From: Tubulanus polymorphus
Taxonomy: Eukaryota > Animalia > Nemertea
Direction: 5' to 3'
Assembly: GCF_964204645.1 (NCBI RefSeq)
Contig: NC_134025.1
Span: 17,211,101-17,275,100, forward strand
DNA: 64,000 nucleotides
Below the pieces are notes generated by a model. That model saw only the letters and a program-made list of their open reading frames with translations, had not been told where the DNA came from and did no database searches. How positions within the stretch are numbered: position 1 is the first letter of the stretch; every line of letters begins with the position of its first letter. Of the stretch, positions 101-60,148 are shown piece by piece. The position numbers and the translations under genes are program-made.

Positions 101-116
101 TTTTTTAATTATATAA

Positions 117-5300: not shown

Positions 5301-5311
5301 TATATAAATAG

Positions 5312-5922
5312 TTATTTTATAAACTTATATTCATATGGAAATTGTAGTCTCAGTAATAATTTTGAACCTTTATTATTCTTTAATTTATTCATATATTCAT
5401 CATGTAATGCAGTAGGTATAATTTGATTTTCTTCCAATGATTGTTGCATAGATTTTTTATCTTTGTTATAAAATAAAACTAGAAATCTAATGTTTTCTCT
5501 AAAGTCTTTAACAATTGAATTATATTTTTGATTTAAAACCCATGTTGTCTCCCAAAATGTCTCCCAGAGAAAGCTAAATAACATAACTCACTTTCTCTCA
5601 CTTTTGAATCATGTAAATTTGCGCAATCATCTATAATGAATAATGTATTTGATCCTTTATAAGTATCAATTGCTATTTTAATACAATTATCTAAATTTTC
5701 TTTTACTGTTTTAGGATCTACTATAATAAACTTTTTTATCTTAACTATATCTCTATTATATGTTTTATTCATTTCATAAGTAGGACAAAATAATATTATA
5801 TTATCAAAATGATTCTTATAAATAGTTTCTAACAAATCTAATATGAAATGTGTTTTACCACAATTGGTTACTCCAGTAACTAACATATTATGCGGTTCGA
5901 ATATAAATAAATCTTTATTCAT
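5312..5922 (-). pseudogene. Genome-packaging ATPase (A32/FtsK-HerA type), frameshifted
   Basis: Walker A GVTNCGKT, Walker B FIIDD, and GRH motif; the C-terminal part continues in ORF 5312..5584. Confidence 0.9.
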
Positions 5923-7006
5923 TTATTCTTTTAATTTTACTAGATAAAATCCATTCATTAAATTTATCATCGTATCCTTTATATTTCACCAAAGAATACT
6001 TTTTTCCTTTAAGAGTTTTTGTTTTCAATACTTTTTCTATTTTGTATTCTATTTCATCTGGATTTGGTGCAAGTGATAATTCTTGTTCATAGAAATAACC
6101 TAATATTTCTTCATCTTTTAGATCTTCTAGTTTATAAACAAAAGTTTTAGTTAATATTATCTTTTTAATCTTGAATATTTCTTCAGTAAAATTTGGGGTA
6201 TAACCTTTATAAAATTTTTTTCTATATTTAGATATTCTTACGTGTTGTCCAATTTTAAATTTTGGTTCACCGAAATCGTGTGTAACAAACGCTCCATATA
6301 AATTATTCCAAACTATTTCCGAATTATCTTCTTTTCTAGCTTGTATAGGTTTAATATTTATAGAACTATGTTTAGAATTATTATAACCTTTCACTAAATC
6401 ATCTAATACATCGATATATTTATATGTTTCATTAGCAGTAAAATATTTCCACATTCTAGTTTTCAATGTTTTATTAAATCTTTCTATAATAGATGCTTTT
6501 TTATCTGAATGTGTTGAAAAATAATCTACATCGTTATCAGATAATAGTTTTTTGAAATGTTTGTTATAAAATTCCTTACCTTCATCAAATTGTATCTTAT
6601 CTGGAATAGCTTCTTTAAATATCGATTTAAAAGCATTTGTAACTTCTATTCCAGTTTTATTTTTGATTGGAATTGACCATGGGTATCTACTGAATATATC
6701 TATAACATTTAATATCCAGAAATATCCTTTGTTGTATTCTTCTAAGTTCTTCATGTCAATTAAATCTGCTTGCCATTGTTGATCGATATATGAAACCATA
6801 ACTTTTCTTGTTAAATAAGTTTTATCCATTTTCTTTTGGATTTGATATGTTGGTTGATTTTGTAACCATGATTTTAATTCACCATATTTTATATTACCAT
6901 TTTCTTTATCAGATTTAATTTTATTCCATAATTCTGAAACGCTAGAATATGATACTTCACTTTCTGGGTTATAATATAAAGCTCTTGAATATTGTTCTTT
7001 TTTCAT
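5915..7006 (-). CDS. Polinton retroviral-like (rve) integrase with C-terminal chromodomain
   Basis: WQADLID, IDIFSRY, QFDEGKEF and ERFNKTLK DDE motifs; C-terminal YKIEKVLK..YSLVKYKGYDDKFNEW chromo-like segment; intact 363 aa. Confidence 0.93.
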   Translation of the reverse strand: MKKEQYSRALYYNPESEVSYSSVSELWNKIKSDKENGNIKYGELKSWLQNQPTYQIQKKMDKTYLTRKVMVSYIDQQWQADLIDMKNLEEYNKGYFWILNVIDIFSRYPWSIPIKNKTGIEVTNAFKSIFKEAIPDKIQFDEGKEFYNKHFKKLLSDNDVDYFSTHSDKKASIIERFNKTLKTRMWKYFTANETYKYIDVLDDLVKGYNNSKHSSINIKPIQARKEDNSEIVWNNLYGAFVTHDFGEPKFKIGQHVRISKYRKKFYKGYTPNFTEEIFKIKKIILTKTFVYKLEDLKDEEILGYFYEQELSLAPNPDEIEYKIEKVLKTKTLKGKKYSLVKYKGYDDKFNEWILSSKIKRINE

Positions 7007-7012
7007 CTTATT

Positions 7013-7381
7013 TTAATCCATTAATAATAATTTAGATTTAGTTTCAATGATTTTATCATTTGACTAATTTTCTGGTATAATAGGTTTATAATCATTGGAA
7101 TCATCTTTATCATCAGATTTGAATTTTGATTTATATATTACACCGGATAATATAATAATTGTGATTTACCCAATTGTAATATATAAGTAATTATTTCTTC
7201 CACTATTAGAAGAATTAAATGGATTGTTATTTGAATCAATATCAGATAATTTCTGTGATTCATTTATATCAGTTAATTTCTTTTTCTAAGCTTTTTTTAA
7301 TTCTGAAGATCTTTTACCTAATTCTCTTGCCCATTTAATTTGTTTCTCAGATCTAACCTTTTTCTTAACTCCATCACTCAT
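7013..7381 (-). pseudogene. Small basic protein with one TM helix (homolog of 29157..29525)
   Basis: TAAATG start; MSDGVKKKVRSEKQIKWARELGKRS matches KKKPRSQKQIEWSRQLGIKS in copies B/C; internal stops. Confidence 0.6.
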
Positions 7382-7976
7382 TTATTTTAGTTAATTTTTG
7401 TTCTGATTCATTTTCTGTTTCGACGTTTGGTTGTAGTACATCTGTTTCGTTCTTTCCTGATTTATATTCCATAGGCTTGATGTTCGAAAATGTTATGACG
7501 CCAGTAGAAATTAATGTCATAACCGATCCTAATTGAAATGAAGCATAACCAACCCATTTTTGTAATTCAGTCATAACTAAGTAGTCATTTTTCAAATCAC
7601 TATATAATTCATTTTCATCATTAATTGGTATTAACTGGTTACATAACTTAGAATAACATTTGACAATACCATCTGAAATAGAATCATTTATTCTAGCTAA
7701 TCTTGCCTCTTCATAAATCTTCAAATATTTTATTACTTTATCTGGTTTCATAGAGTCTAGTTCTTGAAAAGTAATGATTCTATTTAAAAACTCCTTAGTT
7801 TTTCCACCGGCAATCAATAGTTCTAGATGATGCTTACAATATAAATAGTATTCATAATCTATATTACAATTAACTTGAGCACAATTAGTTACAACCGTAT
7901 CTTTATTATCACTTATACCCAAATCATCTAATGTCTTTTCAATATCAATACTATTCTTACTCGATTTCTTTGACAT
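7374..7976 (-). CDS. Conserved element protein of unknown function (200 aa)
   Basis: Intact ORF; YEYYLYCKH..LLIA.G and LYSDLKNDYLVMTEL shared with 28620 and 52972. Confidence 0.75.
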   Translation of the reverse strand: MSKKSSKNSIDIEKTLDDLGISDNKDTVVTNCAQVNCNIDYEYYLYCKHHLELLIAGGKTKEFLNRIITFQELDSMKPDKVIKYLKIYEEARLARINDSISDGIVKCYSKLCNQLIPINDENELYSDLKNDYLVMTELQKWVGYASFQLGSVMTLISTGVITFSNIKPMEYKSGKNETDVLQPNVETENESEQKLTKINE

Positions 7977-8231
7977 TTATATTAGAGAAAAAAAGCAAAA
8001 AAATATTATAAGTATTATAAAATGATACTAGTATCTCTTTAGGTTAATACTAAATTGACTAGGTTAGTTAAAGGTAAAGAATTTTAGTATTAGTTATTGT
8101 TTTTTTAGTATTTTTTATTTGTGATATAAAGTATTCTTTTTTGAAAAGAAAATATTAAAAATATAATAGAATTCACTAGCTAGTTGAAGTTATTGTTTTT
8201 TTAATATTTTTTATTTAAAATCTATTATTCT

Positions 8232-8908
8232 TCAACCACTCAATAAAGATTCAACATATTGTTCATTATTTGGATCATTGTTCCATAATTCAATGAATTT
8301 CTTTGCTTTATCTAATTGATCCAAATATAACTGTAAATCTAGTTTATTAGATTAGATTTGATTTTCTTTCTTTTCTAAAGGCCTTAAATTCTTCCAACCC
8401 CAAATAAGTTTTTTATTGTATTCATCATTCATGTTAAATTTAGAAATCGGTAACACGTGATCAATATGAAAGTATTCACCATAATTATCTATATTCATTT
8501 TATCATCGAATTGAAATATAATCCATGATTTGAGAAATTCATCTGAACAACCCAACAAATTAGATAATGTTTCTGAATGTGTTTCTTTGTTGAATAATTG
8601 TGTTAATCTAGATCTTAAGCATTGTTTCACTTTAAAATCAAAATCTGTTTGATATCTTTCTCTCATATATTCTGCCATATAATAATTATAATGTTCTATA
8701 TTATCTTCTCGGTATTGTTTGGTATATAGTTTAAAACAATATTGAGTTTTACAACAATATTGAAAACCATCTTTGCTAATCTTACGCTTACTAAATTCTG
8801 TTAAAGCTACTTTATCTAATTCACACTTAGAACACTTCTTGTAATATATATTTATAACACACCAGTGTTATTTGTAATATTGATAATTTGTGGTTGTTCT
8901 GGTTCCAT
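8232..8908 (-). pseudogene. HNH endonuclease with N-terminal CxxC domain, resembling large-DNA-virus types
   Basis: TAAATG at 8908; KKCSKC..TEFSK..KDG..CK, then LGCS, NYGEYFHIDHVLPISKF, WKNLRPL..KEN; one frameshift near 8858 and an in-frame stop at 8352. Confidence 0.8.
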
Positions 8909-13267: not shown

Positions 13268-13510
13268 TGTGTGCTCAGAGTTTGTGCGCTGAACCTGTTT
13301 GTATTGTGTTTTGCATTTCTAAACTCTATGAACTTGTACAGTCTTTATTCTGAATCTCTCTTCCAGAACTATTTCTGTGCACTCTGCTGAGCACTGTTTT
13401 CACGCTACCCCCTCCGATTTGTATATAAACAATGTACTTGTAAATACATTTATTCCGAATACAACCACGGTAGAAGGCAGATAGTAGTTGTCTTCATATT
13501 CTGGGATCTA

Positions 13511-14937
13511 TTGAGTTGGCCGTCTTTACCCAACAATATATATATAAGCTCAAAACTAACTGACCATTATAGATCATGCATTATCACAACTGACCTATCA
13601 GACCATCTGCCCTGTTATATATCAATCAAAGATAGGAACTACAAAATGAAAACAAAGGAAACTAAATTATTCCGACGATTCAATCGAAGCAACTTAACCA
13701 ATATTAATAATGAACTCTCTGAAATTGATTGGGCTGTAATTGAAAACATAAACAGCGATGATGGGTATAGCTTTTTAATTGAAAAGCTCACTCAATCTTT
13801 AGATAGACATGCACCCCCGACTGAAACGAAAATTGGGCATATAAAGATAGACGAACCATGGATGACACATGGTCTACTAACATCGTCAAAAAAGTGTGAT
13901 CGTTTATATCGTAAGGTACTTGGTGCTCCAAAAAGTGATCCAAAATACGTAAGATATCTTAATTATCGAAATCAGTTGAATTATTTAAGAAGAAGAGCAA
14001 AGCATAGTTATTATGCGAATAAGATACTTAGTTTTAGAAATAACCGTAGAAAGTTATGTGATTTACTAAAGACCACCATAGGTAAACAAATCATCTACTA
14101 TTGAAAATCTAAAAATTGATGGAAAAATTGAAAAAGACCACAAAAAAATTAGTGACTCACTGTCTTTGTTTTTTAGTAATATAGGAAAAGAGTATGCCAC
14201 TAAAGTCCCAACATCTGAGCATTCATTTCAAGAATACCTCAATATCCATAACAATATTAACATTTTCTTTAGACCCACTGACACTAATGAGATCATTTCT
14301 TTAGTGAAATCATTACCAAATAAAAGTAGTACTGGTTTTAATAACATTAGCAATAATCTCCTAAAAGAAGTAATTTATACTATATGTGATCCGTTGTGTA
14401 CACTATTAACAATTCATTAAGAGATGGCGTAGTACCCAAATTAATGAACATTGCAGAAGTTATTCCTATCCACAAAGGTGATGATAAATCCCAAGCAACT
14501 AACTACAGGCCTATCTCACTTTTACCCGTAATATCTAAAATACTAGAAAAAATAGTTCACAACAGGCTATATAACTTTTTTATTACGAACAACTTACTCT
14601 ACAGCAGCCAATATGGGTACAGAGAAAATCATTCAACTGCTCAATCAATACTTGAATTAACCGGAAATATAATTAGTAGCTTCGACAATGGTAATAACAC
14701 AATTGGAGTCTTCCTTGATCTGTCTAAAGCGTTTGACTCGCTCGATATCCCAACGTTGATATACAAATTAGATAAGTATGGAATAAGAGGAATTCCATTG
14801 CAATGGTTGAAAAGTTACCTCAGTGAAAGGAGAATGTATGTAAAGGTCAACGGAATCAAATCAAATCTAACTTAAGTCGAATACGGAATTCCTCAAGGCT
14901 CTATACTCGGACCACTGCTTTTTCTTATATATGTTAA
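13511..14937 (+). mobile_element. CR1/L2-clade LINE fragment (endonuclease C-terminus plus RT N-terminal half), frameshifted
   Basis: TDLSDHLP, PWMT.GL, NYRPISLLPVISKILEK, FLDLSKAFD, GIPQGSILGPLLFLIYV. Confidence 0.92.
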
Positions 14938-15082: not shown

Positions 15083-16064
15083 TTAACACGTTATAATCCT
15101 GTTCATTATTTCCTTTTCTTTTGTTTCTTCTCTTTTAAATTTTAGATGTTCTCCTAAATTGCAACCATAAGCAACTGTGTGTATACCATCATCCAGAATA
15201 TACCTTTTATCGTCAAATGAATTTAGACTAGCCTTTTCAATTTCTTCAATAAACGTCTCGTGGTGCTCAGATCTTAAACATTTCATCTTATGTTTTGTAA
15301 CTTCTTCATTCAATATACAATTGATGTAATCTTTGAAATGAATATTCTTTTCAACAACGCTTTTGGTTATTCGATTCAATTTCTTTGATTCATGAGTTTT
15401 AGTTTTATATGAATACATTTTAGATCTAATACCTATGAACTCTATCATTCCTTCATCTCCTAATTCATCTTTGAATTTACCGGGCACCTTTTTATTATCA
15501 TTGTCAAACAATTCATGATCTTTTGGATAATTACTAAAGTCGAAATGATGTTTTAATGTTTTTAAATCATCTGTTATATTATTAGTTTTAATCTTTAATA
15601 TGTAAGAATCGGTATCAAAATATAAGATTTCTATATGCTTTTCTCCAAAATGAGGTAGTAATACGTTATAGTAAAATTCATACATTAGTAATTTTGATAT
15701 TTCTATTTTTTATGTTTGCTGAAGCACCAACATAAATTGGTTTATTAAATTTCATAGAAGTTCTCCTCATTTTAACTGCAGCTAAATTGTCATCAAATAT
15801 TCTGTTACCGATAAATTTAGGATATGTTTGTAAATGTCTAATTCTTTTACCATTGCTAACTAACTCAATATCATTTCCATTTCTAATATTTTCACAAGTC
15901 TTACCATAGAATGCATTATTCATTAGTTTGAAGAAATCTTTCTCGAAATCAGTTTTAGCTTTAGTTCTCTGTTTGGTGTTAAAATCTATATATTTTTCCA
16001 ACCATTTAGATTGGCTGAATGAAATATATCTATGTACTTTTTTTTTAATCATTCCTTGATTCAA
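15083..16064 (-). pseudogene. polB: Protein-primed family B DNA polymerase, C-terminal fragment, intein-free
   Basis: KLMNNAFYGK, ILYFDTDSY, GKFKDE, RSKMYS, FDDKRY; two ORFs joined by a small lesion. Confidence 0.93.
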
Positions 16065-16079
16065 ATAAAATTAAAATTG

Positions 16080-18767
16080 TTCTTAATGTAACAGAATTAT
16101 TAAAAGATCAATTTTATGATCAATTAAAAGAGGAGTATGTGAAAGACGAAGTGTTTAATAGAACATTAAATATTTGGAACCATTTTAAGATGAAAAATCA
16201 TGGTGAATTAGTTGATTTATATTTAAAATCAGATGTTATGATATTGGCTGACATATTTGAAAAATTTAGAGAAGTTAATTTGAATCATTTTAATGTTGAT
16301 CCTTGTTATTGCTACTCTAGTCCTGGTTTAACCTGGCAATGTGGTTTAAAATATACAAATGTAGAATTAGATTTATTAAAAGAACCAGATATGGTTTTAT
16401 TATTTGAAAAATCAATTAGAGGTGGAATTAGTGGTGTTATGGGAGATAGGTATTTTAAAGCAAATGATGAATATAAATTATTATATATTGACGCCAATAA
16501 TTTATATGGTTGGGCAATGATGCAACCTCAACCATACAAAATTTTTATATTAACAGAAGTTGAAAATGATGATAAAACTGATTGGGAAAGCGCAATTGCG
16601 AGTTTAAAAGATGAAGCACCAATTGGTTATTTCTTTGTAGTTGATTTAGAATATCCTGAAAATATAAAGTTTAAAACAAGAAACTTACCTTATTGCCCAG
16701 AACATTTAACTGTAGATGATAGTTATTTAAGTGAATACCAGAAGAAAATAAAACCGAAAGATCATGTTTTTACAGAAAAATTAATACTTACTCAAAATAA
16801 TAAATACAATTATATTGTTCATTGTAGAATGTTAAAATTTTATCTAAAACAAGGAATGAAATTAAAGAAAGTACATAGATATATCGAATTTAATCAATCG
16901 AAGTGGTTAGAAAAATATATAGATTTCAATACTCAACAGAGAACCATATCAGATTTTGAAAAAGATTTCTTCAAATTAATGAATAATAGTTTTTATGGTA
17001 AAACATGTGAAAATATTAGAAATAGAAATGATATTGAATTAGTAAATAATTCTGAACGATTAAGACATTTACAATCAAGTCCTAGACATTTAGGAAATAA
17101 AAGATTTGAAGATTATTTAACAGCGGTTAAATTAAGAAGAACGTCAATGAAATTTAATAAACCTATATTCATTGGTTCAACTGTTTTAGAAGTATCAAAA
17201 TTATTAATGTATGATTTTTATTATAATGTTTTACAACCATTTTTCGGGGAAAAGCATATTGAAATATTATATTTTGATTCTGTAACAGCTGACACCCCAA
17301 TATTATTAAAATGTAATGATAAAATATTGATAAGAAGAATTTCAGAAATAATTCCAAAACAAAATGAATGTTATATTTTATATGGTGAAAAAGAATTAAT
17401 ACAAATAAATGGATTAATGGATGTTTGGACAAGAAATGGATGGAAAAAATTAAAGAATATTATTAGGCATAAAACAAATAAGAAAATCAATAGAGTTAGA
17501 ACTAAATTAGGATTTGTTGATGTTACAGAAGATCATAGTTTAATTAAACGAAATGGCAATGAAATAAAACCAACTGATATAAAAATTGGAGATGAATTAT
17601 TACATAAAAGATTTTTCCAGAGATGAATCATATGTCATTTGATGAAATAATTGATAATATTTATAATGTAGAACCCGAAACATTAGAAGAAAAAGAATAT
17701 CTTATCAAAGGATTTTTCAAGGGTGATGGTTCAGCAGGTGTGTATAATTATGTTTGGGGTAATAAATATTGTTGGTATTTATGTAATCAAGACTTAAAAT
17801 TATTAGAAAGAATTAAGAAATTCTGTGAAGTTTATTCACATAAAACATTTAGAATCATGGATGTTATGAAATCATCAGCAGTTTATAGAATACTTGTAAA
17901 TAATCCTAAAGATTTTGCTATAAAATATAATGATGAATTCTATATTCATGCAATAGTTAAAAGTAATACTTCAACTAAAGAAAAGATAGTACCAGATTAT
18001 GTATTAAATGCAAAAAAATAATTTAAGAAAGTGGTTCTTCATTGGATTCTATGCCGCAGATGGCACTAAAAAATTTACAAAGGATAAAAAGATAACCTTT
18101 GCACAGAAAGGAAAAGTTGCTATATCAGGGTTAAATATATTATGCATTTCATTAGGATTTAATATGAATATAGAATTAATTAAATCTAAAGCAAATTGTT
18201 TTAATTTAAGGCATGTAGAAAAAGATTTAACTGAAGAAGTTAAAGATTTATTTGAAATATATAACCCAACTGACTATGTTTATGATTTATCAACAGATGA
18301 TGGAACATTCAATTCTGGGTTCCCATTAATCCAAAAAAATACCGATGCGTACATACTAAAAATCGAGACAAATGACATAACAAAAGACTTAAAAACATTA
18401 AAACATCATTTTGATTTTAGCAATTATCCCAAAGATCATGAACTATTTAGCAATGATAATAAAAAGATTCCTGGTAAATTTAAAGATGAATTAGGGGGTG
18501 ATGAAATGATTGAATTTGTTGGGATAAGAAGTAAAATGTATAGTTATAGAACAAAAGATCATGAAGCTAAAAAGTTAAAAGGAATAACAAAACATGTGGT
18601 TGATAAACTTATATAAATCAATTGTAATGAAACATAAAATGAATTGTTTAAGATCAGAAGATCACGAGATGTACATTAATGAAGTTGAAAAAACTAGTTT
18701 GAATCCATTTGATGATAAAAGGCATATTTTAGATGATGGTATAAAAACATTACCTTATGGCCATTAA
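16080..18767 (+). pseudogene. polB: Protein-primed family B DNA polymerase (5'-truncated) containing an intein
   Basis: YLKSDVMILADIFE (exo III), RGGIS, YIDANNLYGWAM (motif A), KLMNNSFYGK (motif B), split motif C YFD/TDAY, GKFKDE, and FDDKRHILDDGIKTLPYGH* ending at 18767. Confidence 0.95.
17279..18340 (+). mobile_element. Intein with LAGLIDADG homing endonuclease, inserted in PolB motif C
   Basis: Block A SVTADTPILL, block B VDVTEDHSL, block C LIKGFFKGDGS, block E FFIGFYAADGT, block F YVYDLSTDDGTF, block G LIQKN followed by Thr; absent from the homologous site at ~15605-15620. Confidence 0.95.
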
Positions 18768-18841
18768 AACAGAAAATCAATATCATCATACTCGAAATCA
18801 CTATTGGCTTCTTCATTTTCATTTAATTGTTCTTGTATAAT

Positions 18842-20094
18842 TTATTTAGGTTCTTCCATTTCAATTTTCTCATTTAAATAAAGTTCTATCTTGTACCACA
18901 TTTCATTTCGCTCTCTTTGTTTCTTTTTGTTTGTTAATTCATCAAATGGAATTATAATATCTATGTTTAAATAATTTACAATCTTATTTAAAAAGAATTC
19001 ATAATTAATTGAATCTGTTATTCTATTTTCCAAATGATACATTAATATTTGTTTGAATGTTTTTTTTATATTTTCCATATCTTCTTCTGTTAACTTTGGT
19101 TTTTCATAATAATCGTTAAAAAATAAATATAAATACATTTTCTTTTGTTTTGTGATAAATGTTGATGGAATAATTGTTTTTATAATATCTTTTTTAGTTA
19201 TTTCACCATTTTTATTTTCTATTATTTTCATTTTTTCAAGCCATTGCTTATATTCTGGTGTATGATCTTCTATAGAAAATATTTTAAACATTTCATCAAG
19301 ATAATTTAAGTTTGGTTCTATGAGAAAATCTCTAGTTTTTTCTTCACCCCATAAATTCTTTTGCCATCCACATTCATTACAAAATAACAAAGTACCTTCT
19401 TGCCTAAAGGTCGCATAACTACATTGTGGACATTTTCGTTTATAATTTATTAGTAATAGATCTTCATTAAGCTCCTGGTATTTTTTCTTACGTTTTCTTT
19501 ATGTTTTATTGTTCTATTATGTAGATTTTAATTACTTGTTGTAATAATCAATTTACAATATTTACAATAATATGTTTTTCTTGTTAATTCATTATATTGT
19601 TTATCTAACTTTTCAACTGTTTCTTTATTATCTGGTAACGTTTTCTCATATTTTATTTTTTCTAATATATTATTTTTTCTTTCATTGAATTCTGCTTCAA
19701 ATTTATTAGAAATTTTATCTATATGTGCTTTACGAAATTGATGATTCTCCCAATCTTCTATATTTTCAGGGCTATATTTTATTCGACAAGGCTCACAGAA
19801 ATGATCTTTTATATTATCCTTATCATAGAATAAGAAAGGTCTTTTCCAAATAATTTCTGGTTCAACTTCAACAGAATTACTATTACTTTCGTTACTATCA
19901 ATATTAGCCGTTGCGCCATTAATTTTACACTTCTCTGAATGTTTTTTAACATAATTTCTTGAGAATAATTTATCACATTTTGGACAGTTTAGTTTAGGGG
20001 GTTTATAATTTTCATCATGTTTTTTCATATGTCGAACCATATTACTTTTTCTTAGAAGTTCACCACAAATTTCACATGCTATCTTCTCATCCAT
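18842..20094 (-). pseudogene. Multi-zinc-finger protein (one gene broken by a stop at 19528 and a frameshift at ~19485)
   Basis: CEICG..MVRHMKKH, CPKC..KKH..KC, CEPC..H..H, CKYC..HNRTIKH and CPQC..CNECG; TAAATG start. Confidence 0.75.
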
Positions 20095-20162
20095 TTATTA
20101 AGGAAAAATTTTATTAAAATTAATTTTTAGTGATGAGCGGTAATTTTTTTATGTTATAAATA

Positions 20163-20924
20163 ATGGTAGAATTAAAAGAATACAGAATATTTGTTGATTC
20201 TAGAAAGCTTACAAATTATAAATCACATAATTTACTAATACAATTAGATAGAGAATTGAAGAATTGTGTTGATTTAAAATTAGTTAATATAAGGTTATGT
20301 AATTCTTTTTATAATGTATCGGATAAAAGTTTTGATCATAGATTGTTTATGATTCATGATAGAAATATGGATAAATGGTATCATCTATTTCTAAGACCAG
20401 GATTATATAATTTAGAAACATTATCTCATGAAATTAATAAAAGAGCTCGTTTAAAAGTGGGTGAATCTGTTGGGTTTAACATTAAATTTAATAAAATTGA
20501 TAGTACTAATAAAATAAGAATAAAGTTAACTAATGAACAATATAAATAGTAAGAAAACCATTAGCTAAAATGCTAGGAGTTAATCCAAATAAAGTATAAA
20601 TATAAGTATTCAAATGTTGATACTACACCAAATATAATACCTTTTACGCACTTCTATATTTATTGTAATTTAATTGATCCTACAAAAACATTCGAAGCAA
20701 CTAAAGATACAATTTGTAATTCTGGTTTATTAAATATTTTACCATTAAAAAATGTCAAACAATTTGGAACTCAAATAAATTATAATTTAGCTGAATGTGA
20801 TTTTAAATCTTGTATTCCTCAATTTAATAATTTTAAATTAGAAATAAGAAATCACAATGGATATTTAATTGATTTAAATAACTTTCCTGTGATATATGAA
20901 TTAGTTATAAGATGTAGAGAGTAA
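20163..20924 (+). pseudogene. Minor capsid (penton-like) protein, disrupted
   Basis: N-terminal IFVDSR..L...LKN...LKL....NSFYNV..PGLY and, after lesions, C-terminal YIYCNLI..LEIRNHNGYLIDLNNFPVIYELVI, a pattern typical of Polinton/virophage minor capsids. Confidence 0.7.
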
Positions 20925-20940
20925 TTTTTTCACTATATAA

Positions 20941-21300
20941 ATGAATATAACTGTGGGACCGAGTATATGTTTTGGGTTTGATTTTAAACGTGAGAAAGAA
21001 ATGAAATTTAACATTAATGATGTAATTACACATATCAAAAATATTGCACTTTCTAATGAAACAACATTTGAATATGAAACAACAATAGATAAAGAAAATT
21101 TAAATGTAGAAAAGATTACTAATTTAATTAGAGAATCTTTAAGATTTTATGAATTAGATGAAGATTTTATCATAGATGATATCAAAAACATATTAACCAA
21201 AATATATGATAATCATAAAAGTAGTAATGAAATAAAGGTTGAATTAATCATCACTAAGATAACTAAATATTTTGAAGATAATAATTTTTTTGATAAATAA
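20941..21300 (+). CDS. Hypothetical protein (119 aa)
   Basis: Intact ORF, TAAATG start, abuts the next gene. Confidence 0.6.
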   Translation: MNITVGPSICFGFDFKREKEMKFNINDVITHIKNIALSNETTFEYETTIDKENLNVEKITNLIRESLRFYELDEDFIIDDIKNILTKIYDNHKSSNEIKVELIITKITKYFEDNNFFDK

Positions 21301-21522
21301 ATGAGTGATAATAAGTGGATAATAACTGGATTATATAATGGAGCATTACTATCAGTTGGAACTGTTGGTTATTCAATGGTATTAAAAAAAGTATTCAAAA
21401 TGGGAAGTGTTAATGTTGATAGATTTGATATAAATGATATTTTAAAATTAACATTAGCAGTTACTTTATCTAATTTAACTATTGATTATTTGGAAAAACA
21501 AAAATATATTCCTCCCATATAA
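21301..21522 (+). CDS. Small hydrophobic protein (73 aa)
   Basis: Intact ORF, TAAATG start, two hydrophobic or amphipathic helices. Confidence 0.65.
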   Translation: MSDNKWIITGLYNGALLSVGTVGYSMVLKKVFKMGSVNVDRFDINDILKLTLAVTLSNLTIDYLEKQKYIPPI

Positions 21523-21546
21523 ATGCGTAATTATTTTACTTAATAA

Positions 21547-21969
21547 ATGGCTTCTGCAATTATAACTATTATAGGATCGGCAATTGTTAACGCTTTAGCA
21601 TTTACTGGTGGTGGTTATTTATTTAAGCATATTGATAAAAATAGTTCATTGGGAGAACAAAGAAGACATAACTTAGCATTAGAAAAATACAATAAAGCAG
21701 CAGAAGAATATAGAGAAAAGAGACAAAACTATATGGATTATATTAACAAGGAATTATATGATCAGAAGATTTCACATAGAGATTTTCAATCAGTCGATGA
21801 TGCAATGAGTTTATATAACGCGGTAAGCAATAAAAAAAAATTACATCTATACAAACCTAAATTATCAGATTATTATACCCCAAGTAAAGAACAACAGAAA
21901 TATGAAATAATATGGATTTTAGGTGGAACTGTTATTGTTATATTTGTTGCTTATAAGTTTACTAATTAG
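21547..21969 (+). CDS. Membrane-active or core protein candidate with ExxRHN motif (140 aa)
   Basis: Gly/Ala-rich hydrophobic N-terminus, EQRRHNLALE, C-terminal TM helix. Confidence 0.65.
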   Translation: MASAIITIIGSAIVNALAFTGGGYLFKHIDKNSSLGEQRRHNLALEKYNKAAEEYREKRQNYMDYINKELYDQKISHRDFQSVDDAMSLYNAVSNKKKLHLYKPKLSDYYTPSKEQQKYEIIWILGGTVIVIFVAYKFTN

Positions 21970-21989
21970 TAATTTTTTTTTCTAAATAA

Positions 21990-22424
21990 ATGGAAGATAA
22001 AGTTGATAATATTGATATTATTCCTCATGATATAAATAAAACTAAATTAAAAATATATTTAGAAAAACAAATATTAGAATTTGAAAGTGACTTAAAGATA
22101 AAAAAGAAAAAATATTTAAAAAGTAAAATTATATATTATCTTATTATTAGTGGTTCGGTTACAATTAGTTCTGTAATAACATTTCTAGCAATATTCAGTC
22201 CATTAACACCTTTAGCTATATCAATTGGTGTATTAGGATTAAGTTCAAGTGTTTTAACTGGTATAAGTTCAAAATTAAATATAAAAAGTAATAAAGAAAA
22301 AATTGAAACTAATATAAAAGCAATTAATAAATTAAAGAATACACTAGATTATATAATAAGTTTAAATGGCTATATAACAGTTGAAGAACAAGATAAATTA
22401 TTAAAAGAATTAATAAATTATTAA
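21990..22424 (+). CDS. Two-TM membrane protein (SLATT-like architecture, 144 aa)
   Basis: Basic helix, two adjacent TM segments, then a coiled C-terminus; second copy at 1..100. Confidence 0.7.
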   Translation: MEDKVDNIDIIPHDINKTKLKIYLEKQILEFESDLKIKKKKYLKSKIIYYLIISGSVTISSVITFLAIFSPLTPLAISIGVLGLSSSVLTGISSKLNIKSNKEKIETNIKAINKLKNTLDYIISLNGYITVEEQDKLLKELINY

Positions 22425-22439
22425 TTTTTTATTATATAA

Positions 22440-23826
22440 ATGGTAGATTGTTTTCCAAAAGCTTTGCAATATAATAAATCAATTAAATATAATATTCCAG
22501 CAATAGATTTTAATAAAGATATTACATATAGAAATGAAGTTTTAGATTCATTAACTAATTTAGAAATTTATGTTACTGAAACTAATAATTTTAATGCAAA
22601 GATGGAAAATATATTTCATGTCTATTTAATTAATTTTAAAAAATTGAAAGAAGAAAAACAATGGTTATTAAAATCTAATATGAAGTATTGGCAGAACCAA
22701 TTGAATTTTGCTGTTTATTGTGCAACAACAGGTTGTGGAATTAGTTGGAATGATCATTTGAATAATTCTAAATATAAATTAATTCAAAGTTTATTTAGAT
22801 TTCATACTTATTTTCAAATAAGATTAATATTAAATGAATTAGAGACCCCTTTACCAGGATCTAGATATTTTAAAGAATTAGATATTAATATTAATTTATC
22901 AAAGTTTTATAAAACTTGTAATGAATTTAATATAGATATAAATAATTCTGATTTTAGAACAAAAATTGGAACAATAAGATCACTTCCTTGCCCTAAAAAG
23001 ATTGTAGAATATTGTGCACTTCCTATACCATCTAATAGCTTTTATAATATCGATAATAATAAATTAGGTTATGGTAAAATAGAAACAAAGGATTTAGAAA
23101 CATAAAATTTCAATAAATTACCGAAATTTTATGATAATTTAAAACAAGAAAACAATAATGGTTGGGTTTATTTCATTTTAGAAAATAATGAAGGTTTTAC
23201 AAAATCAGGTATACAAAGAATAAATCAATCTATTAGAACTTATTTGATATGTATTCTAGGATCACAGGTTGAAACAAGATCCCCAATAATTGGAAATTTA
23301 AATACATCATTTGATACACAGAAACAATTCAAAGTATTATTTGAAGATTCCATTCATAATGATAAAAATAGATCGATTCCAGAAAACATTGTAAGATATC
23401 AAAATTATTTAGATAAATCTCATGTAAGACTAGATTATTGTATAGGCCCTAATCTATTAATTATTTCTAATGATTTAGTACTAAAGATGGGAAACATAAT
23501 TGGTTACAATAATCTAATTAAAACTGCAACAATAAATAATTCATTTGGATTAAATGATATAAATAAAAAGATTATTACTGCTCCAAAATTAATGGAAGGC
23601 GAAAAAAATAAAAAACATATTCAATCAACAGAAACTAAAACTAAGAATATTAAATTAAATAATGATTCTAAACCGGATTATAATACATCAGAAAATATTA
23701 AAACTGATAATATTCAACATGAAATAATTAAAACTGATAATGATAATAAATCCCATGAAAATACTAAATTAGCTTTAACTTGTATAGGAATTGTAACAGG
23801 AGGAATATTATATCTTAAATTTCAAT
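22440..23826 (+). pseudogene. Homolog of 117..1505, frameshifted at ~23103
   Basis: Near-identical protein sequence split into two ORFs; original stop changed from TAA to CAA. Confidence 0.85.
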
Positions 23827-23841
23827 TTTTTTATTATATAA

Positions 23842-25281
23842 ATGGATGGAGAAGATATTGGAATGGATAATTTTGATGAACCTGGCATAACTGATGAACA
23901 ACAACCTGATTTTAGTGAAACAAGTTTCAATGACGGTAATGAGCCAGAACGTAATTCTAATTTAAATACACCTGCATATATTGATAAAACACGTTCAAAG
24001 ATAAGTATTGAAAATGAAGTACCAGAAATAACAGAAAAAGAATACAAATATAATGAAATTATTCATGAATTTAAACCAATGTTAAAAAGATCTGGTTTCA
24101 ATATAACAAATAAAGGTATGAATTATTTAGTAAAAGATTTGAAATATTTTAATGGTGATTATTATTGGAAATTGAAAGGCGACTATTATTTTAAGATTTC
24201 TTCTAATAAAAGTCTCGATAAAATAATAACAAAATCAACTTTAATTAAATTTGAACAATCTAGAATTAAGAAAATCATTAATGATGTTATAACTGATATT
24301 ACAGAACAAGAGATAACTCAAAATAAAAAAGAATTTAAACGAAGAAATGATGATTTTTTTGAAGATAAATAATGCAAATTTAGAACCAGAAACAACTTCT
24401 GAACAGAATAAAACTTCCAAAACTAGTAAACCTAAATCAACCGAAGTTCAAACTGAAAAACTTTTACAAAATGGGTTACTTGATGCAACAAATCAAGAAT
24501 TAGAAGATTTAAATATATTTTCTGATGAAGCAATTAGAGAAATTATTAGTATAAGAAATGAAGCTGATAAAATTGCACATAATAAAAGTATAAGAGATAT
24601 TAAAATTAGAACTTTAGAAAAAGAAGTAACTGATAAAAATAAAGAAACAGAACAATTTAAGTCTGATCTTGATAGTCAAGCAATTGTTGAAATGGAATAT
24701 AGGCAAAAAGAATTACGTTTAGAAAAAGAAATTAATAATTTAAAAGATAATTTAGAATTACAAAAAGAAGAAATTAAATCATTATTAAAATCATATGATT
24801 ATAATATTAATAGATTAAAAGTTATTTTTAAAAATTTGTTGATAAAACCAAATTCTGAAGTATCATTGAAAGATAGAATAAAATTATTATTTAAATTAGA
24901 ACAATTCTTTCAATTCTAACAGCTGTAACTATGTTATTTACAACAATTGGTTTAGCAATATCAAATTCTTTGAAATCTACTCCTACTCCCAATAAACATG
25001 ATAAACCCCCGAATGATAATAATTCTATACAAGATAAAGTTAAAGATGGTTTAAAGAAATTAGCAAAACATTTATGGGAACTATCTAAAAAATCTGCTGC
25101 AGCTTTACCAGGAATTATTGCATCAATTTTTGGTTTTATATTGAAATCAGCTGGGAATATTCTTAACTTTGCTGCTGAACATATTATTTTATTTTTAATT
25201 ACCGTTGTAAGTGCTATTATTTTTGGGTTAGTGAATATGATATCAAAAAGATATCAAGAAAAAATAATAAAAAATGAATAA
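23842..25281 (+). pseudogene. Homolog of 1522..3117, disrupted, with a different central domain
   Basis: Shares EDIGMD.FD.PGIT at the N-terminus and the coiled-coil/TM C-terminus; three ORF pieces. Confidence 0.85.
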
Positions 25282-25301
25282 TTAATTTTTTTGTTAAATA
25301 A

Positions 25302-26548
25302 ATGAGTGGGAGTTATATAAGTCCTTCTAAGATTTCTAGAATATCTAATGCTATTTAAGCAGAAAGATCACATCATATAATTACTCATAATCCTTCAAAT
25401 ATTAATCCCGATGAAACTTTATTTGTTAGAATTCCTAGATTAACACAAAATACTTTTTATGTTCCAAATAGTATTTATTTATCAGCCGATATAAAAGTAA
25501 CTGGTCATGATAATAATTATGTTGTCGATAATGTTGGGAGATATTTGATTAAAAAATTAAGTATAAAGATCGGTCCAGAAACAGTTTTCTCATTAGATGA
25601 TTATAATTTATTTATGCATTATAAAGATTTATGGTTAACTAAAGAAAATAGAAAATTATGATATTTCAAGGTATTCAATCGGAAAACCATAATAAATTAA
25701 GATCAGGAGCTAATGACGCAATAGTAACTCGTGCCGCAGATAATTTGATTAAAAAGATTTATGGAAGCAAATATAAAATTCCATTAGACTTTGAATTGAT
25801 AAATAATAATGCACCTTTATATAAATATGTAATTCAAGAAGATATTATATTTGAGATAACATTTGCTCCTGTAAATGAAATTGTATTATCTAGCGTTGTT
25901 AAAGATATGGTATATAAATTATCGAATATATGTTTAGAATATGACACAGTAACTAATGAAAATATTGCTAGCACAATTCAAACTCAATACAATCAAGGAT
26001 TTTTATTATTATATGATTATATTGATAAATTTAAAACTGTAACTATTATTGCAAATGATGAAATAATTAATGAGAATATTAACTTCCCAAGAAGATCTGT
26101 TAAAGGTATATTAATATTTTTTACCATTGCAACATATTCTAATGGCGCAATAAATGTTGATAATTATTATAATCCTGAAATAACGAAAGCAGAAATAACT
26201 ATCGAAGGAATAGCAAATAAAATATTTTGGCAAGGAATGAGAATGATTGATCAATGGCCAGAAAATAGAAAACATTTTATGAATGACAAAGTAAAATCAT
26301 TTGAAAATTGTAATATTAATCAAATTGATTATTATACCGGCAATAAATATGCATTATGGTTTGATTTCAGAACAACAGAGGATAATTAATTACATGGTTC
26401 TGGAAAAAAACTACAGAACACTAAAGATGGAATACAATTATTCATGAAAAAGAAAAAAGGAAGCTTAAATTATAAAATGCACATTTATATTATATCTGAC
26501 GCACAATTAAATATTGTAAATTCACAATTAGATAGTATTCAATATTAG
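25302..26548 (+). pseudogene. Major capsid protein, full length (~415 codons) with stops and a frameshift
   Basis: Collinear with the copy A and copy C fragments; beta-rich character; sits between the membrane genes and the integrase. Fold not verified. Confidence 0.7.
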
Positions 26549-26578
26549 AAATATAAAGTTAAAATTAACGATATATAA

Positions 26579-27705
26579 ATGGGTGGTAAAAAAACTCCTA
26601 ATACTAAAGAACAATATTTAAGAAATTTATATTACAACCCTGAGAGTTCGGTTGCTTATTCTTCTAACAAAAATATATGGCGTCAAGTAAAACAAGATAA
26701 ATTAGATAGGATAATCCCACAAAATTTAGTTAAATATAAAGATATAAATGAATTCATGTTAGAACAACCAACATACACAACACATAAAAAAATTGTTAGA
26801 AAATATAAAACTCGTAAAACTATGGTAAGTTATGTAGATCAACAGTGGCAAGGAGATTTATTGATATGAAAAATGTTAAGAAAGATAATAATGATTATTG
26901 GTGGTTATTGAATATAATTGATATTTTTAGTCGTTATGTATGGAGTTTCCCACTTTATAGAAAAGATGCTGTACAAACATCAAATGTTTTAAGAAAATTT
27001 CTTTTGGATGATAAACTAAAACCAGAAAAAATACAATTTGATGATGGAAAAGAGTTTGATAATTCACTTGTTCATGAACTCTTGGATAATCATAATATTA
27101 AATATTTTTCAACAAAATCGGATAAAAAAGCAGCAGTTGTTGAACGATTTAATAGAACATTAAGAACAAGAATGTGGAAATACTTTACAGCAAATAATAC
27201 TTTTAAATGGATTGATGTTTTACCAAAATTGATAGAAGGATATAATAATTCTTATCATTCTTCTATTGGAATGAAACTTATTGATGCTAGAAAACCTGAA
27301 AATGCTGAAATTGTTTGGAATAATTTATATGGAGCATTTCTTGTAGATGATTTTGGTGAACCTAAATTTAAAGTTGGTCAAAATGTTAGAATTTCTAAGT
27401 ATAAAAAGATATTTGACAAAGGATACGATCGAAATTTTACTAGAGAAATATATAAAATAAAAAAGGTAATAACAACAAAACCATATGTCTATAAATTAGA
27501 AGATTTAGATGGTGAAGAAGTTGATGGCTACTTTTACGAAGAAGAATTAAGTTTAACTACTGAAAATCTAGAACAAGAATATAAAATTGAAAAAGTATTA
27601 AAAACAAAAACTGTTAAAAGAAAAAAATATTCTTTAGTAAAATGGGTTGGATGGCCAGATAAATTCAATGAATGGATATTATCAAGTAAAATTAAAAATA
27701 TATAA
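26579..27705 (+). pseudogene. rve integrase with chromodomain, one frameshift at ~26860
   Basis: WQGDL/IDM, IDIFSRY, QFDDGKEF, ERFNRTLR, LVKWVGWPDKFNEW. Confidence 0.93.
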
Positions 27706-28314
27706 ATGAATAAGGAATTATTTATATTTGAGCCTCATAATATGTTAATTTCTGGTGTAACAAATTGTGGAAAAACTTATTTTATATTAAATTTATTAGA
27801 AACTGTTTATGAAAACTATTTTGATAATATAGTATTATTTTGTCCAACATATGAATTTAATCAAACTTATGATAGAAATATTACTAGAAATAATAAATTT
27901 ATTATATTAGATCCTAAAACAGTAAAAGACAATTTAGATAATTGTATTAAAATAGCAATAGATATTTATAAAGGATCAAATACATTATTCATTATAGATG
28001 ATTGTGCAAATTTACATGATTCAAAAATTAGAGAGAGTGAGTTATGTTATTTAGCTTTTTCTGGTAGACATTTTGGGATAACAACTTGGGTTTTAAATCA
28101 AAAATATAATTCAATTGTTTAAGACTTTAGAGAAAACATTAGATTTCTAGTTTTATTCTACAATAAAGATAGAAAATCGATGAAAAATGCACTTGAGGAA
28201 AATGATATTATTCCACATGATTTACATAATGAATATATGGATAAGTTGAAAAATATTAAAAGATCAAAATTACTATTTAGATAACAACACCCATTTAAAT
28301 ATGAATTTATTTAA
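27706..28314 (+). pseudogene. Packaging ATPase with in-frame stops
   Basis: GVTNCGKT, FIIDD, SGRHFGIT; homology continues past the stop at 28122. Confidence 0.9.
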
Positions 28315-28317
28315 ATT

Positions 28318-28590
28318 CAACTAGCTTGTTAATCTATTACATATTTAGTTACATTCTAGTTGAATTCTAGTTATTAGTAGTTGGAACAAAAAAATAAATA
28401 AAAACAACAATATTTTAACTAGCTTGTTAATCTAGTATATTTTTAGTTACATTCTCGTTGAATTCTAGTTATTGGTAGTTGGAACAAAAATCAACTAGAT
28501 TTAACAAGAAATAAATAAAAACAACAATATTTCAACTAGCTTGTTAATCTAGTTGAATTCTAGTTACATTCTAGTTGAATTCTAGTTGCA
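28318..28590. repeat. CTAG-rich intergenic repeat, about 3 units (second copy at 52775-52950)
   Basis: AACTAGCTTGTTAATCTA.. TTACATTCTAGTTGAATTCTAGTT is repeated. Confidence 0.8.
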
Positions 28591-28619
28591 ACAACACAAT
28601 TGATTTTTTTGTTATATAA

Positions 28620-56830: not shown

Positions 56831-58969
56831 AAAAGTTACATAGTAACAAGCAGCTGGGGTCCAGCGAAGCAGCTATGCTCAGTGTGAGTTTGACCACTTA
56901 AAGCTGTCAGTATCAATTAAATTGTTGTTGATACTGGCTCTTTGAGACTAGTGAAATGCCGCGGTCATAACCACTAGGATAGACTTTAGTTTATACTCCA
57001 CATCCGGGCCACTACAGTTGAACCTATATCTGAAAATAAAGTATGACTGAATGTGTTGTTAAGCAATGACATTAAATCATGCAAAAATAATATTGATTTA
57101 TAGAATATCTAGGTTCTGAAATGAAGAAAATGTATAAGTTACTGCAAAAAAATTGATTGTTTAAGGAAATAACAAAATTCATGCAAATGGATATGACTAG
57201 CAATGCATGCAATATAAATTTATGAAATTTATAAAAATATGAATGAACAGTGAGAATATGAATAGAATTCTTTTGACTAGAATTTGACTAAGATGACCAG
57301 CATTCAATTATTCCAAAAATCTAAAATTCACAACGTTTCAATCTCACTCTAGAGATCATCGTCAAGTGTACATTAGTAATAAGCATAAATCATGCTGTCC
57401 ACGATCTCTACACTGTAAATATCCAGGATAGATCAGGATATCTTTCGTCGTGGAATAATAGAAATATAATGATGTGAATATGATAAATAATTTGGGAAAG
57501 CTTGAACTTGAAAACGAAATTTTAAAAAAGTTCATCTCTGCTCAATATTCTTAGTTGCGCACTGTCTTATGAGTAATCATGTAATTCGAGGATATGCATT
57601 TTAATTCGAGCTCCATCCAGTCGGCCGGAGTTTCCAGTCGGCGCGGTTGGTTTTTAGTAGGAGCCCTATAGGTAGATGTTCGTTTGAGCAAATGGCCTCC
57701 ATGGCCCGTTTATGGTTGCCACCCTTGTTTTTTCAAATTACCTTTCCCTGATTTTCCACATTTCAAAGTCATGTTACACAAAGAACAAAATGCAAGTCCA
57801 GGAGCATCTATTTTTCTTCAAATAGATCAACATAACATCGCCCATGCAATTCTCCTCTCCCAACCATGCCCATTTCCATGTATTTGTAACATCACGATCT
57901 AGGCCTATAGTTTTAATATCGGCACTTGCATGACTAACTATTTTGGAATTCATTTTGAGCGATCCACACTCAATGACTTTTGAGAATCAAGAGACTTACG
58001 AACTTAGAACAATGAACGGTCACTGCTGTCTAGCCTACAAATGTGGTCACGTCACACATGTGCACGATAAATCCGGAAAGCTTTCCTCCCTGCGATTGAT
58101 AGCTGCATTATATCGGTTACAATTACTGGCAACTGCACCGGCTCACATCGTCACGTAATAAGCATTTTGAGAATAGATTTCATTTAGTTTTAATAATAGC
58201 GGAATATATTTCCAGTTGAAAAGCAGTTTCTAAAGACCTTTATCTTTCTTATTCTGTTTTGAAAAAATGTGCTAGCAACATCATAGATGGGGCCGCTCAC
58301 CCCATAATTCTACCCATTTCGTTGTAATTCATTCATTCAATTTCCAATGTACATTTGAAACAGTTTGTGAATTGCCTTTTCACCCTATGTAACTAACCCC
58401 ACATGTTTTTGGTTAGTGAGCCACAGATAAATGGACATCATCTTCAACTGATGTCAACATATACATTTGAAACATATTGTGAATTGCCTTTGCCTCTATC
58501 TAACTAGCCCCACATGCTTTGGACATGTAACTTGCCCGCGTGTTTCGGACATGTTGGCAATACATAAACGAACATTATCTGATGTCAACTTGTACAATTG
58601 AAATCATTTGGGAATTGCCTTTGCTGTGATTATACTGCTATACACCTTGCTATACTTAGATATTTAACCTTACTTGATGAATAAACTTATTTACCATAGA
58701 CAATAAATCATCTTAGCTGATCAAGGCACAATCACATTTTCATTTTCCACAATAACTGACATTGATGATGTAGGCCTATACTTAATGCAAATGAAGATAT
58801 TTTTCCTTAGCCTTAAAAGCGATGGCTTGTTAGCTGACCATAATGATCAGAGGTGGATTTAAAGGTTCTTGAGTACTGCGCTGCTGCTGCTGTAGGCAAC
58901 TATGTCATAGAAAATTTTTGATTTTGTAGAGCTCTGAGTTCAATCTCAATCAATTTGGGGCTCCATTTG

Positions 58970-60148
58970 ATGAGAACAGTACTCACAGACATAAAACGTT
59001 CTTCTCATTTCAGGAGTTATACCCCTCTGCAAGTATACAGGATGACACAGCATTTGCGGTACACTCTTCTGTCAAGAAGGCTTTCTCAGATTCATATAGA
59101 GAGAAAAAGCAAATTATTCTACCATGATTCTTTGGCGATAACATATGCTAGCTATGGGGATCCTACAAAAACACTTGTAAAAACTAACATCAGTCTACCA
59201 AAAAAACTTTCTCCAAATGAAATTTTAGTGAAAATGATGGCAGCTCCTATCAACCCAGCAGACATTAATATGATTGAAGGTGTTTACCCAATAAAACCAG
59301 CCTTGCCAGCAGTTGCTGGCAATGAAGGTGTGGGTATTATTGTTGACACTGGAAGTGACGTACAAACCATCGAGTGTGGGGACTGGGTTATTCCCAGTAC
59401 TTCTGGTTGGGGAACCTGGAGAACGATGGCCATTTGTGCAGAGGAAGAGGTTAAGAAAATTGACAATGATATACCTGTGACAAAAGCAGCAACAATAGCT
59501 GTCAATCCATGTACAGCTTATAGATTGCTTTTAGACTTTGTAAATCTTAAACCAGGTGATACAGTTATTCAAAATGGAGCTAATAGTGCTGTTGGTCAAG
59601 CTGTCATTCAAATTGCCAATTCAATGGACCTGAAAACTGTAAATATTTTGAGGCCAAGAGAAGACTTGAAGCAATTAACTGAATATCTCAAAGGAATTGG
59701 TGCTACACAGGTCCTTACTGAGGAAGAATCAAGATATCCTGAAACAAAAGAATTGTGGAAAGTGCTGAAGAAGCCAATGTTAGCGCTGAATTGTGTAGGT
59801 GGCAAAAGTGCTACACAGCTTATAAGACATCTTGATAAAAATGGTGTAATGGTTACTTACGGTGGAATGTCAAGACAGCCAGTTACTATTCCCACTGCAC
59901 AGTTCATTTTTAATAACATAAAGCTTGTGGGATTCTGGATGACTGAATGGAACCTGAATAATAGATCATGTGCTGATGGTGATAAAATGTTGAAATATCT
60001 TTGTGACCTTATACATAAGGGTAAATTACAACAGCCTATTTGCGAATTTACCCACATATCAGATTATGCAAATGCTGTAAAAGCATCACTCCAATCACGC
60101 ACTTCCAAAAAACAAATTTTGTACATGGATGACGCTGTATGTCAGTAG
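58970..60148 (+). CDS. MECR: Mitochondrial trans-2-enoyl-CoA/ACP reductase (MDR superfamily)
   Basis: APINPADINMIEGVY, GNEGVG, VNPCTAYRLL, IQNGANSAVGQAVIQ, ALNCVGGKS, TYGGMS, GFWM; basic N-terminal transit-like peptide; first ATG at 58970. Confidence 0.95.
   Translation: MRTVLTDIKRSSHFRSYTPLQVYRMTQHLRYTLLSRRLSQIHIERKSKLFYHDSLAITYASYGDPTKTLVKTNISLPKKLSPNEILVKMMAAPINPADINMIEGVYPIKPALPAVAGNEGVGIIVDTGSDVQTIECGDWVIPSTSGWGTWRTMAICAEEEVKKIDNDIPVTKAATIAVNPCTAYRLLLDFVNLKPGDTVIQNGANSAVGQAVIQIANSMDLKTVNILRPREDLKQLTEYLKGIGATQVLTEEESRYPETKELWKVLKKPMLALNCVGGKSATQLIRHLDKNGVMVTYGGMSRQPVTIPTAQFIFNNIKLVGFWMTEWNLNNRSCADGDKMLKYLCDLIHKGKLQQPICEFTHISDYANAVKASLQSRTSKKQILYMDDAVCQ

Follow-up and report, generated by a model that had tools for sequence, protein, structure and literature searches.

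Metazoan genomes have no inteins, according to the relevant passages of two reviews (PMC5784728, PMC8529194). The locus analyzed here raises the question of how an intein came to interrupt the polymerase gene of a Polinton on an animal chromosome, and what has become of it there. The window (the whole stretch of DNA that was analyzed, 64,000 nucleotides in length) contains the gene of a Polinton protein-primed PolB (pPolB), motif C of which is split by an insert at YFD/TD. The insert has an in-frame length of 1062 nt, and in the frame translation it is preceded by ...YFD and followed by TDA; the translated junctions read ...HIEILYFD / SVTADTP on the upstream side and GFPLIQKN / TDAYILK on the downstream side. 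Its parts are the following.

17279..18340, plus strand: intein coding sequence, pol-c (motif C) allele, 354 codons with two frameshifts
17279..17623, plus strand: N-terminal Hint region, with block A (Ser1, SVTADTP) and block B TEDH (17525-17536)
17626..18012, plus strand: middle piece in a shifted frame, with the first LAGLIDADG motif LIKGFFKGDG (17701-17730)
18020..18340, plus strand: C-terminal piece, with the second LAGLIDADG motif FFIGFYAADG (18035-18064) and blocks F/G YVYDL...GFPLIQKN

The residues of a class 1 intein are all present in the window copy, namely Ser1, the TEDH motif, the block F Asp (YDL), the terminal Asn and Thr+1, and both LAGLIDADG motifs keep their acidic residues (GFFKGDG and GFYAADG). 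The penultimate residue is Lys, not His, which is common in members of the pol-c allele. The reading frame is discontinuous: it breaks near 17610-17625 and again near 18010-18020, and the middle third is shifted. The N-terminal piece scored 31 bits on the Hint profile TIGR01445 (cut-off 24.5); the broken pieces stayed below the Pfam cut-off for Intein_splicing (E 0.044) and LAGLIDADG_3 (E 0.018), and comparison of the N-terminal piece with solved inteins gave weak matches (E 0.017-0.17).

The identification was extended with intact relatives. A protein search with the N-terminal window piece returned 133 long proteins, the best 120 of which were examined. The best match, P0001, is a protein-primed PolB of 1693 aa (PF03175, 62 bits) that carries an open intein of 354 aa at YGD/TDS. 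The three window pieces match this intein at 70, 53 and 65% identity, and the total length of the window intein is the same. The reading frame is continuous through both exteins in P0001, P0007, P0521 and P0535, and the last two of these relatives carry an endonuclease VII domain in addition to the intein. LAGLIDADG_3 was above the cut-off in six of the seven intein-bearing proteins scanned and Intein_splicing in one, and the 13 intact Polinton inteins that were checked all have T-x-x-H in block B, the aspartates of both LAGLIDADG motifs, Asp in block F, the terminal Asn and Thr+1. The model of one intact relative, P0400 (pLDDT 91, built on 50 sequences), matches TliVMA, PhoVMA, PI-PkoII, PI-PfuI and PI-SceI at E 1e-19 to 1e-13, and superposes on I-DmoI with an rmsd of about 3 Å. 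The predicted Hint and LAGLIDADG fold is that of this relative, and the window's own sequence is known by profile only. Judged by its sequence, the insert is a canonical LAGLIDADG class 1 intein, and it was assigned to the pol-c allele (first Asp/Thr of PolB motif C) because it lies in motif C and its closest kin are inteins at that site. A spliceosomal intron was rejected, as the insert is coding and homologous to inteins, and so was a Hedgehog-type Hint domain, as the insert has an endonuclease and a C-extein nucleophile.

Much of this had been anticipated by a sequence-only reading of the window. Its coordinates for a 1062-nt insert between YFD and TD proved exact, both in the frame translation and against the empty copy described below, and the Hint profile match on which it had made the claim depend was obtained with TIGR01445. 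It had also equated the site with that of the Mimivirus PolB intein, which agrees with Ogata et al. (2005, PMC549080), where that intein is placed at YGD/TDS, with 351 aa, Ser1, a terminal Asn and Thr+1, and archaeal position III inteins are placed at the same site. All the splicing and LAGLIDADG motifs that it had counted as canonical were seen, but the insert, with its two breaks, is not one open frame, a point at which this reading hinted only by speaking of the "repaired" intein in its proposed check.

The polymerase that surrounds the insert, and a second polymerase fragment alongside it, are arranged as follows.

16082..17278, plus strand: N-extein of a 5'-truncated protein-primed PolB, with motifs A and B and the first Asp of motif C
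18341..18764, plus strand: C-extein, beginning with Thr+1 (TDA...), with a further frameshift near 18610-18620
15164..16070, minus strand: intein-less, inverted, 5'-truncated pPolB fragment (empty allele), with the site between 15614 and 15613

The window exteins are 56-60% identical to P0001, the N-extein being 56% identical to residues 783-1183 of this PF03175 protein, and the filled polymerase lacks the first ~780 residues. The empty copy is uninterrupted across the site (HIEILYFD/TDSYILK) and aligns to both flanks of the insert; the alignment ends at 17278 and restarts at 18339-18341. The two copies share 74-76% DNA identity and 77-84% protein identity, and around the insertion site 27 of 30 nt are identical. 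PF03175 matched the empty copy at E 3e-5, below the cut-off. From profile scores, the window polymerase probably belongs to a divergent (Beta-like) class, and P0007 to the PF03175-typical (Alpha-like) class. The GC content of the intein is 24.9% and that of the extein 24.6%, an equality that fits a long residence. The two fragments, both 5'-truncated, are joined back to back at ~16070-16082, and this junction is a rearrangement between two diverged Polinton copies. Because of the two frameshifts and the truncated host gene, the window precursor is predicted to be unable to splice; the intein copy is a pseudogene, for which neither splicing nor homing would be possible.

The wider element and its chromosomal surroundings were then mapped from the following features.

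26818..27705, plus strand: retroviral-type integrase with chromodomain, filled element (Pfam rve 33.8 bits, cut-off 32.6)
27706..28122, plus strand: A32-type packaging ATPase, partial frame, filled element (Pfam Pox_A32 44.1 bits)
5533..7012, minus strand: integrase and ATPase of a second, inverted Polinton copy, with 75-76% DNA identity to the plus-strand copy
25359..26580, plus strand: broken gene, candidate major capsid protein
1-8900, 16000-29850, 41400-43300 and 51000-55700: partial Polinton copies of one family, with a different gene order in the inverted copy
58922..60148, plus strand: MECR, mitochondrial enoyl-ACP reductase, host gene (best named match Lineus longissimus, 59%)

Both rve and Pox_A32 are above cut-off in two Polinton copies of the window, and the empty polymerase allele probably belongs to the inverted copy that carries the integrase and ATPase. 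At least four truncated, rearranged partial copies of one Polinton family lie within 56 kb, with 75-94% DNA identity; they are interspersed with a LINE reverse transcriptase, satellites and host DNA, and the neighbouring genes are also broken. In these truncated and rearranged copies no terminal inverted repeat pair was identified within the window, and no cysteine protease was found among the window ORFs scanned. As regards the broken gene that we take to resemble a major capsid protein, the two pieces scanned gave no family match and no viral relative, and its single-sequence fold (pLDDT 33) was uninformative. The inverted copy also holds a free-standing ORF of the endonuclease VII family (8352-8867, minus strand; phrog_1035, E 1.5e-9). 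Other mobile-element remains in the window are a retroelement gag/protease (61990-62622), an HTH_psq transposase (45421-45864) and a decayed LINE (13391-14875). The window MECR groups with that of Lineus at 100/99 in a tree of 26 rows, which include no brachiopod, phoronid, bryozoan or flatworm by name. With its rve, Pox_A32 and pPolB genes, the element is of the Polinton type and sits on an animal chromosome, as had been claimed for it, and its host is likely a nemertean. The host MECR is one intron-less frame, which may be a retrocopy or a lineage trait.

In order to place the window intein among its relatives, the matches were sorted by their best-fitting reference. Among the 372 distinct matches listed, 25 fit Polinton-polymerase inteins better than any other reference and 347 fall outside the Polinton clade; P0103, which scored marginally better with the Polinton set (147 vs 143 bits), was left out of the count of 25. 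Some of the Polinton-intein matches represent whole clusters (17, 55 and 121 sequences, with many fragments among them), and the contigs reach up to 825 kb; such large clusters and long contigs suggest multicopy integrated elements in eukaryotes. Among the Polinton-intein carriers examined, the window alone can be assigned to an animal chromosome, the relatives being metagenome records. One of them, P0401, a Polinton polymerase with an intein, bears the annotation of a hypothetical protein in a bacterial bin, the source label of which names a clam symbiont; it is probably mis-binned eukaryotic DNA, apparently carried over from the host. Another, the metagenome contig L067 (4198 bp), encodes a pPolB with an intein in which, as in the window, there is an interruption between the two LAGLIDADG motifs.

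Of 74 rows assembled for phylogenetic analysis, 11 were removed as mis-cut, truncated or redundant, leaving 63 for a quick tree, and 39 were kept for a careful tree. The intein tree was midpoint-rooted, with no archaeal outgroup and with the Mimivirus sequence not among its rows. The Polinton inteins form one side of a branch in the 39-row tree (10/10 rows, 100/100), and they also stay together in the quick tree (14/14 rows, SH-aLRT 100). Between the window intein and its nearest Polinton relatives identity is 63-75%, as against 36-42% with the inteins tested from giant-virus MAGs. For the window's polymerase class the extein and intein trees agree and contain the same three subgroups, and the pairwise identities of intein and extein are correlated (Mantel r 0.94, p 0.0006, from eight rows that include several near relatives, which inflate r). 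Since the rows were found via the intein, they contain too few empty alleles, and among close kin the co-divergence could reflect either inheritance or homing. The empty alleles (the window copy and P0524) fall inside the filled clade, and the exteins of P0524 are identical to those of the filled P0521 at 569/571 and 169/169 residues. P0007, from the distant polymerase class, shares 19-27% extein but 41-49% intein identity with the other eight rows; outside P0007, intein and extein identities are about equal within the window's polymerase class. This points to an intein transfer between the Polinton polymerase classes, although nesting is not forced by the AU test, in which P0007 as sister to all other Polinton inteins was not rejected (p 0.21).

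Regarding the origin of the lineage, the sequence-only reading had named the RNA-primed PolB of a giant virus as the source. The nearest non-Polinton kin are indeed motif-C inteins of RNA-primed PolBs, ten of which are joined by the Polinton clade in the careful tree; but the sister group holds PolBs of prokaryotic viruses as well as of giant viruses, including matches to the prokaryotic-virus polymerase family phrog_262 (E 1e-163 and 1e-155), the support of 83/95 is unstarred, and the tree has no independent root. In the 63-row quick tree the sister relation to virus PolB inteins was not recovered. The same reading had supposed a jump into this very element during co-infection, which does not agree with an intein that is common to a broad Polinton lineage and co-diverges with it. 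It had named, as something that would refute it, that such inteins are already catalogued and vertically inherited in this group: they are shared by the Polinton lineage and co-divergent, which goes part of the way to that refutation, but no catalogue entry was found in the open-access literature.

The C-terminal signature GxFN[TSC]GFPL is shared by the inteins of this sister group and was detected at 15 viral loci, of which 13 are labelled as giant-virus MAGs; GFPLI is also present in the window intein, as it is in PolB inteins of giant-virus MAGs, and none of these 15 loci has a pPolB extein match. The signature was found at 42 metagenome loci, of which one (L067) is a pPolB, and at no locus of the prokaryote genomes searched. 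It is not Polinton-specific, because it occurs at viral loci and because nearly all of the metagenome loci are without pPolB. With the N-terminal intein piece, 18 viral loci were found at 38-55%, for which frames and site motifs were read, and a phage collection gave one match, at 27%. The comparison of P0001 with viral contigs yielded 57 candidate stretches and no confirmed relative. The DNA of the empty site matches the flanks of virus inteins at a mean of 12.5 of 18 nt (best 15/18, 50 loci), which makes a cross-class homing event plausible. The intein of this lineage was likely acquired once, long ago, from a large DNA virus; we infer the donor and the direction from a tree without an independent root, the direction because the Polinton clade is a small part of a larger set (25/372 matches listed).

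Two side observations concern the mobility of this intein family. Three prokaryotic-virus-type PolBs (P0027, P0030 and P0062) carry inteins that are nested among giant-virus MAG inteins, and this nesting suggests exchange between phage-like and eukaryotic viruses. In five further sequences (P0002, P0026, P0041, P0067 and P0071) the same Ser1/Thr+1 intein family is found at DQD/TDG of type II topoisomerases; these form one clade and would represent a non-allelic jump to a look-alike D/TD motif.

Several other explanations of the window copy were weighed. The low GC of the element (20-26%, against 31-44% in the flanks) could be taken to mean that the contig is contaminant or chimeric, with an element of a protist or a free virus; this is extremely improbable in view of the four rearranged copies with decayed genes that are interleaved with LINE reverse transcriptase, satellites and host DNA, and of the MECR gene in the same window, on a contig of 32,063,560 bp. 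It would also be very unlikely that the copy is intact in the animal, with an expressible intein and frameshifts due to assembly errors. Both breaks do coincide with homopolymer runs or adjoin them, and in total length the copy equals the intact P0001 intein, but the polymerase lacks its N-terminal part, abuts an inverted fragment and has an extra frameshift, the neighbour genes are broken, and the precursor would be dead in either case. A deliberately fractured gene (split intein), the pieces of which would splice in trans, is scarcely conceivable: an ATG overlaps each break (17624 and 18008), but the second break lies between the two LAGLIDADG motifs and would free no whole endonuclease, the relatives are continuous, and the surrounding element is decayed.

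As for how the intein reached the element, a recent single jump from a co-infecting giant virus would account for a site and an architecture as in Mimivirus, for an empty-allele target that resembles virus flanks to the extent given above, and for the existence of a close intein-less copy. Such a one-off event is largely refuted by the identities and the trees, and we consider it highly improbable, since the nearest relatives are Polinton inteins and not those of giant-virus MAGs, the Polinton inteins form a single clade, and there is no GC shift. Alternatively, the two Polinton polymerase classes may have inherited the intein from their common ancestor, or it may have flowed from Polintons to large viruses, and it may then have been mostly lost, with no transfer between classes. 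The AU test is compatible with P0007 branching off first, and the tree lacks an independent root; on the other hand, the intein of P0007 is much closer to the others than its polymerase is, whereas the two are about equal within the other class, and the allele shows much greater diversity among RNA-primed PolBs, as judged from the 347 of the 372 matches listed that lie outside the Polinton clade. We regard this alternative as unlikely.

The reading that we prefer, and hold to be probable, is that the window contains a decayed LAGLIDADG intein in motif C of a Polinton pPolB, which belongs to an old Polinton-resident lineage, is predicted to splice when intact and has likely spread by homing. 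In class 1 chemistry an ester formed at Ser1 is attacked by Thr+1, the terminal Asn undergoes cyclisation, and the exteins are rejoined. Translation from an intact element would yield a polymerase precursor whose motif C is interrupted, and excision via Ser1, Thr+1 and the terminal Asn would restore the YxD-TD aspartates and the active site; splicing is predicted to be obligatory for the polymerase because the insert separates the two motif-C aspartates. Where filled and empty elements share a nucleus, either by co-infection or as co-resident integrated copies, the LAGLIDADG endonuclease would cut the empty site, and repair of the cut would copy the intein into the empty allele. Precise loss and re-invasion would keep filled and empty alleles circulating. 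Both splicing and homing are predicted for intact elements because the catalytic residues are retained and filled/empty pairs exist. The lineage would have been seeded once, from a motif-C intein of the RNA-primed PolB of a large DNA virus, with at least one move between the two Polinton polymerase classes, and the window copy would have entered the germ line with its element and decayed afterwards. We propose more tentatively, as a possibility that may or may not hold, that Polintons harbor long-lived active homing inteins, the first in protein-primed polymerases, which reach animal germ lines; some would be intact, with splicing needed for replication and homing taking place in the animal nucleus.

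This intein can be compared with several known systems. With the pol-c inteins of Mimivirus and archaea, as described in PMC549080, it shares the motif C site, Ser1, the terminal Asn, Thr+1, the LAGLIDADG motifs and a length of about 350 aa; those inteins reside in RNA-primed PolBs, whereas the host here is a protein-primed Polinton polymerase in an animal chromosome. From the pol-c inteins of giant-virus MAGs it differs in that the Polinton inteins form a clade of their own, and in that the window copy is broken. In their pPolB, retroviral-type integrase and A32-type ATPase, and as AT-rich integrated elements, the copies in the window resemble Polintons/Mavericks/adintoviruses, for which the consulted parts of Starrett et al. 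(2021, PMC8502044) mention no intein; none is mentioned in the coral polintovirus survey PMC11131425 either. The Polinton pPolBs of a nematode study carry HNH and VSR nuclease domains, according to portions of Jeong et al. (10.1101/2023.08.22.554363), the text of which does not contain "LAGLIDADG", "homing" or "hint". Krupovic et al. (2024, PMC11071308) suggested intein invasions as the source of the homing-endonuclease domains of Polinton pPolBs. These cases have in common with ours, as far as those excerpts describe them, a nuclease domain inserted in a Polinton polymerase, and differ in that a complete Hint and LAGLIDADG intein is found here in the active site, with empty alleles.

The nuclear inteins of eukaryotes covered in extracts of PMC5784728 and PMC10710043 are those of fungal Prp8 and VMA1 and those of Anaeramoeba, and inteins of eukaryotic viruses include those of insect iridoviruses. 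In the same extracts, as here, viruses are implicated as carriers into nuclear genomes; the window intein differs in residing in an endogenous element, not in a host gene. The Anaeramoeba paper (PMC10710043) implicates viruses in intein spread and does not contain the words "polinton", "metazoa" or "animal". Inteins are treated only in general or in giant viruses in the consulted sections of PMC12220804, PMC13768754, 10.1101/299784 and PMC3671162. A survey of the open-access literature brought up no report of a Hint/LAGLIDADG intein in protein-primed polymerases, those of Polintons included, or in animal genomes; an obscure prior annotation of Polinton inteins may exist. As far as this literature goes, the novelty is that a protein-primed polymerase, that of a Polinton, carries the pol-c allele, and the example on this animal chromosome is a dead one.

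It is important to mention that the window copy is dead and resides outside host genes, in an endogenous element, and that animal viruses (iridoviruses) were already known as intein carriers. Within these limits, the presence of an intein sequence on an animal chromosome by way of an integrating virus-like element indicates a route for inteins into the animal nucleus. The pol-c allele is extended from RNA-primed to protein-primed polymerases, which share little beyond the motif-C codons, and the near-identical filled and empty alleles make homing directly testable. The intein would also be a genetic trace of Polinton ancestors having shared cells with large DNA viruses, and of contact and DNA exchange between Polinton classes; both matter for deciding whether the way of life of animal Polintons is that of viruses or of virophage-like elements.
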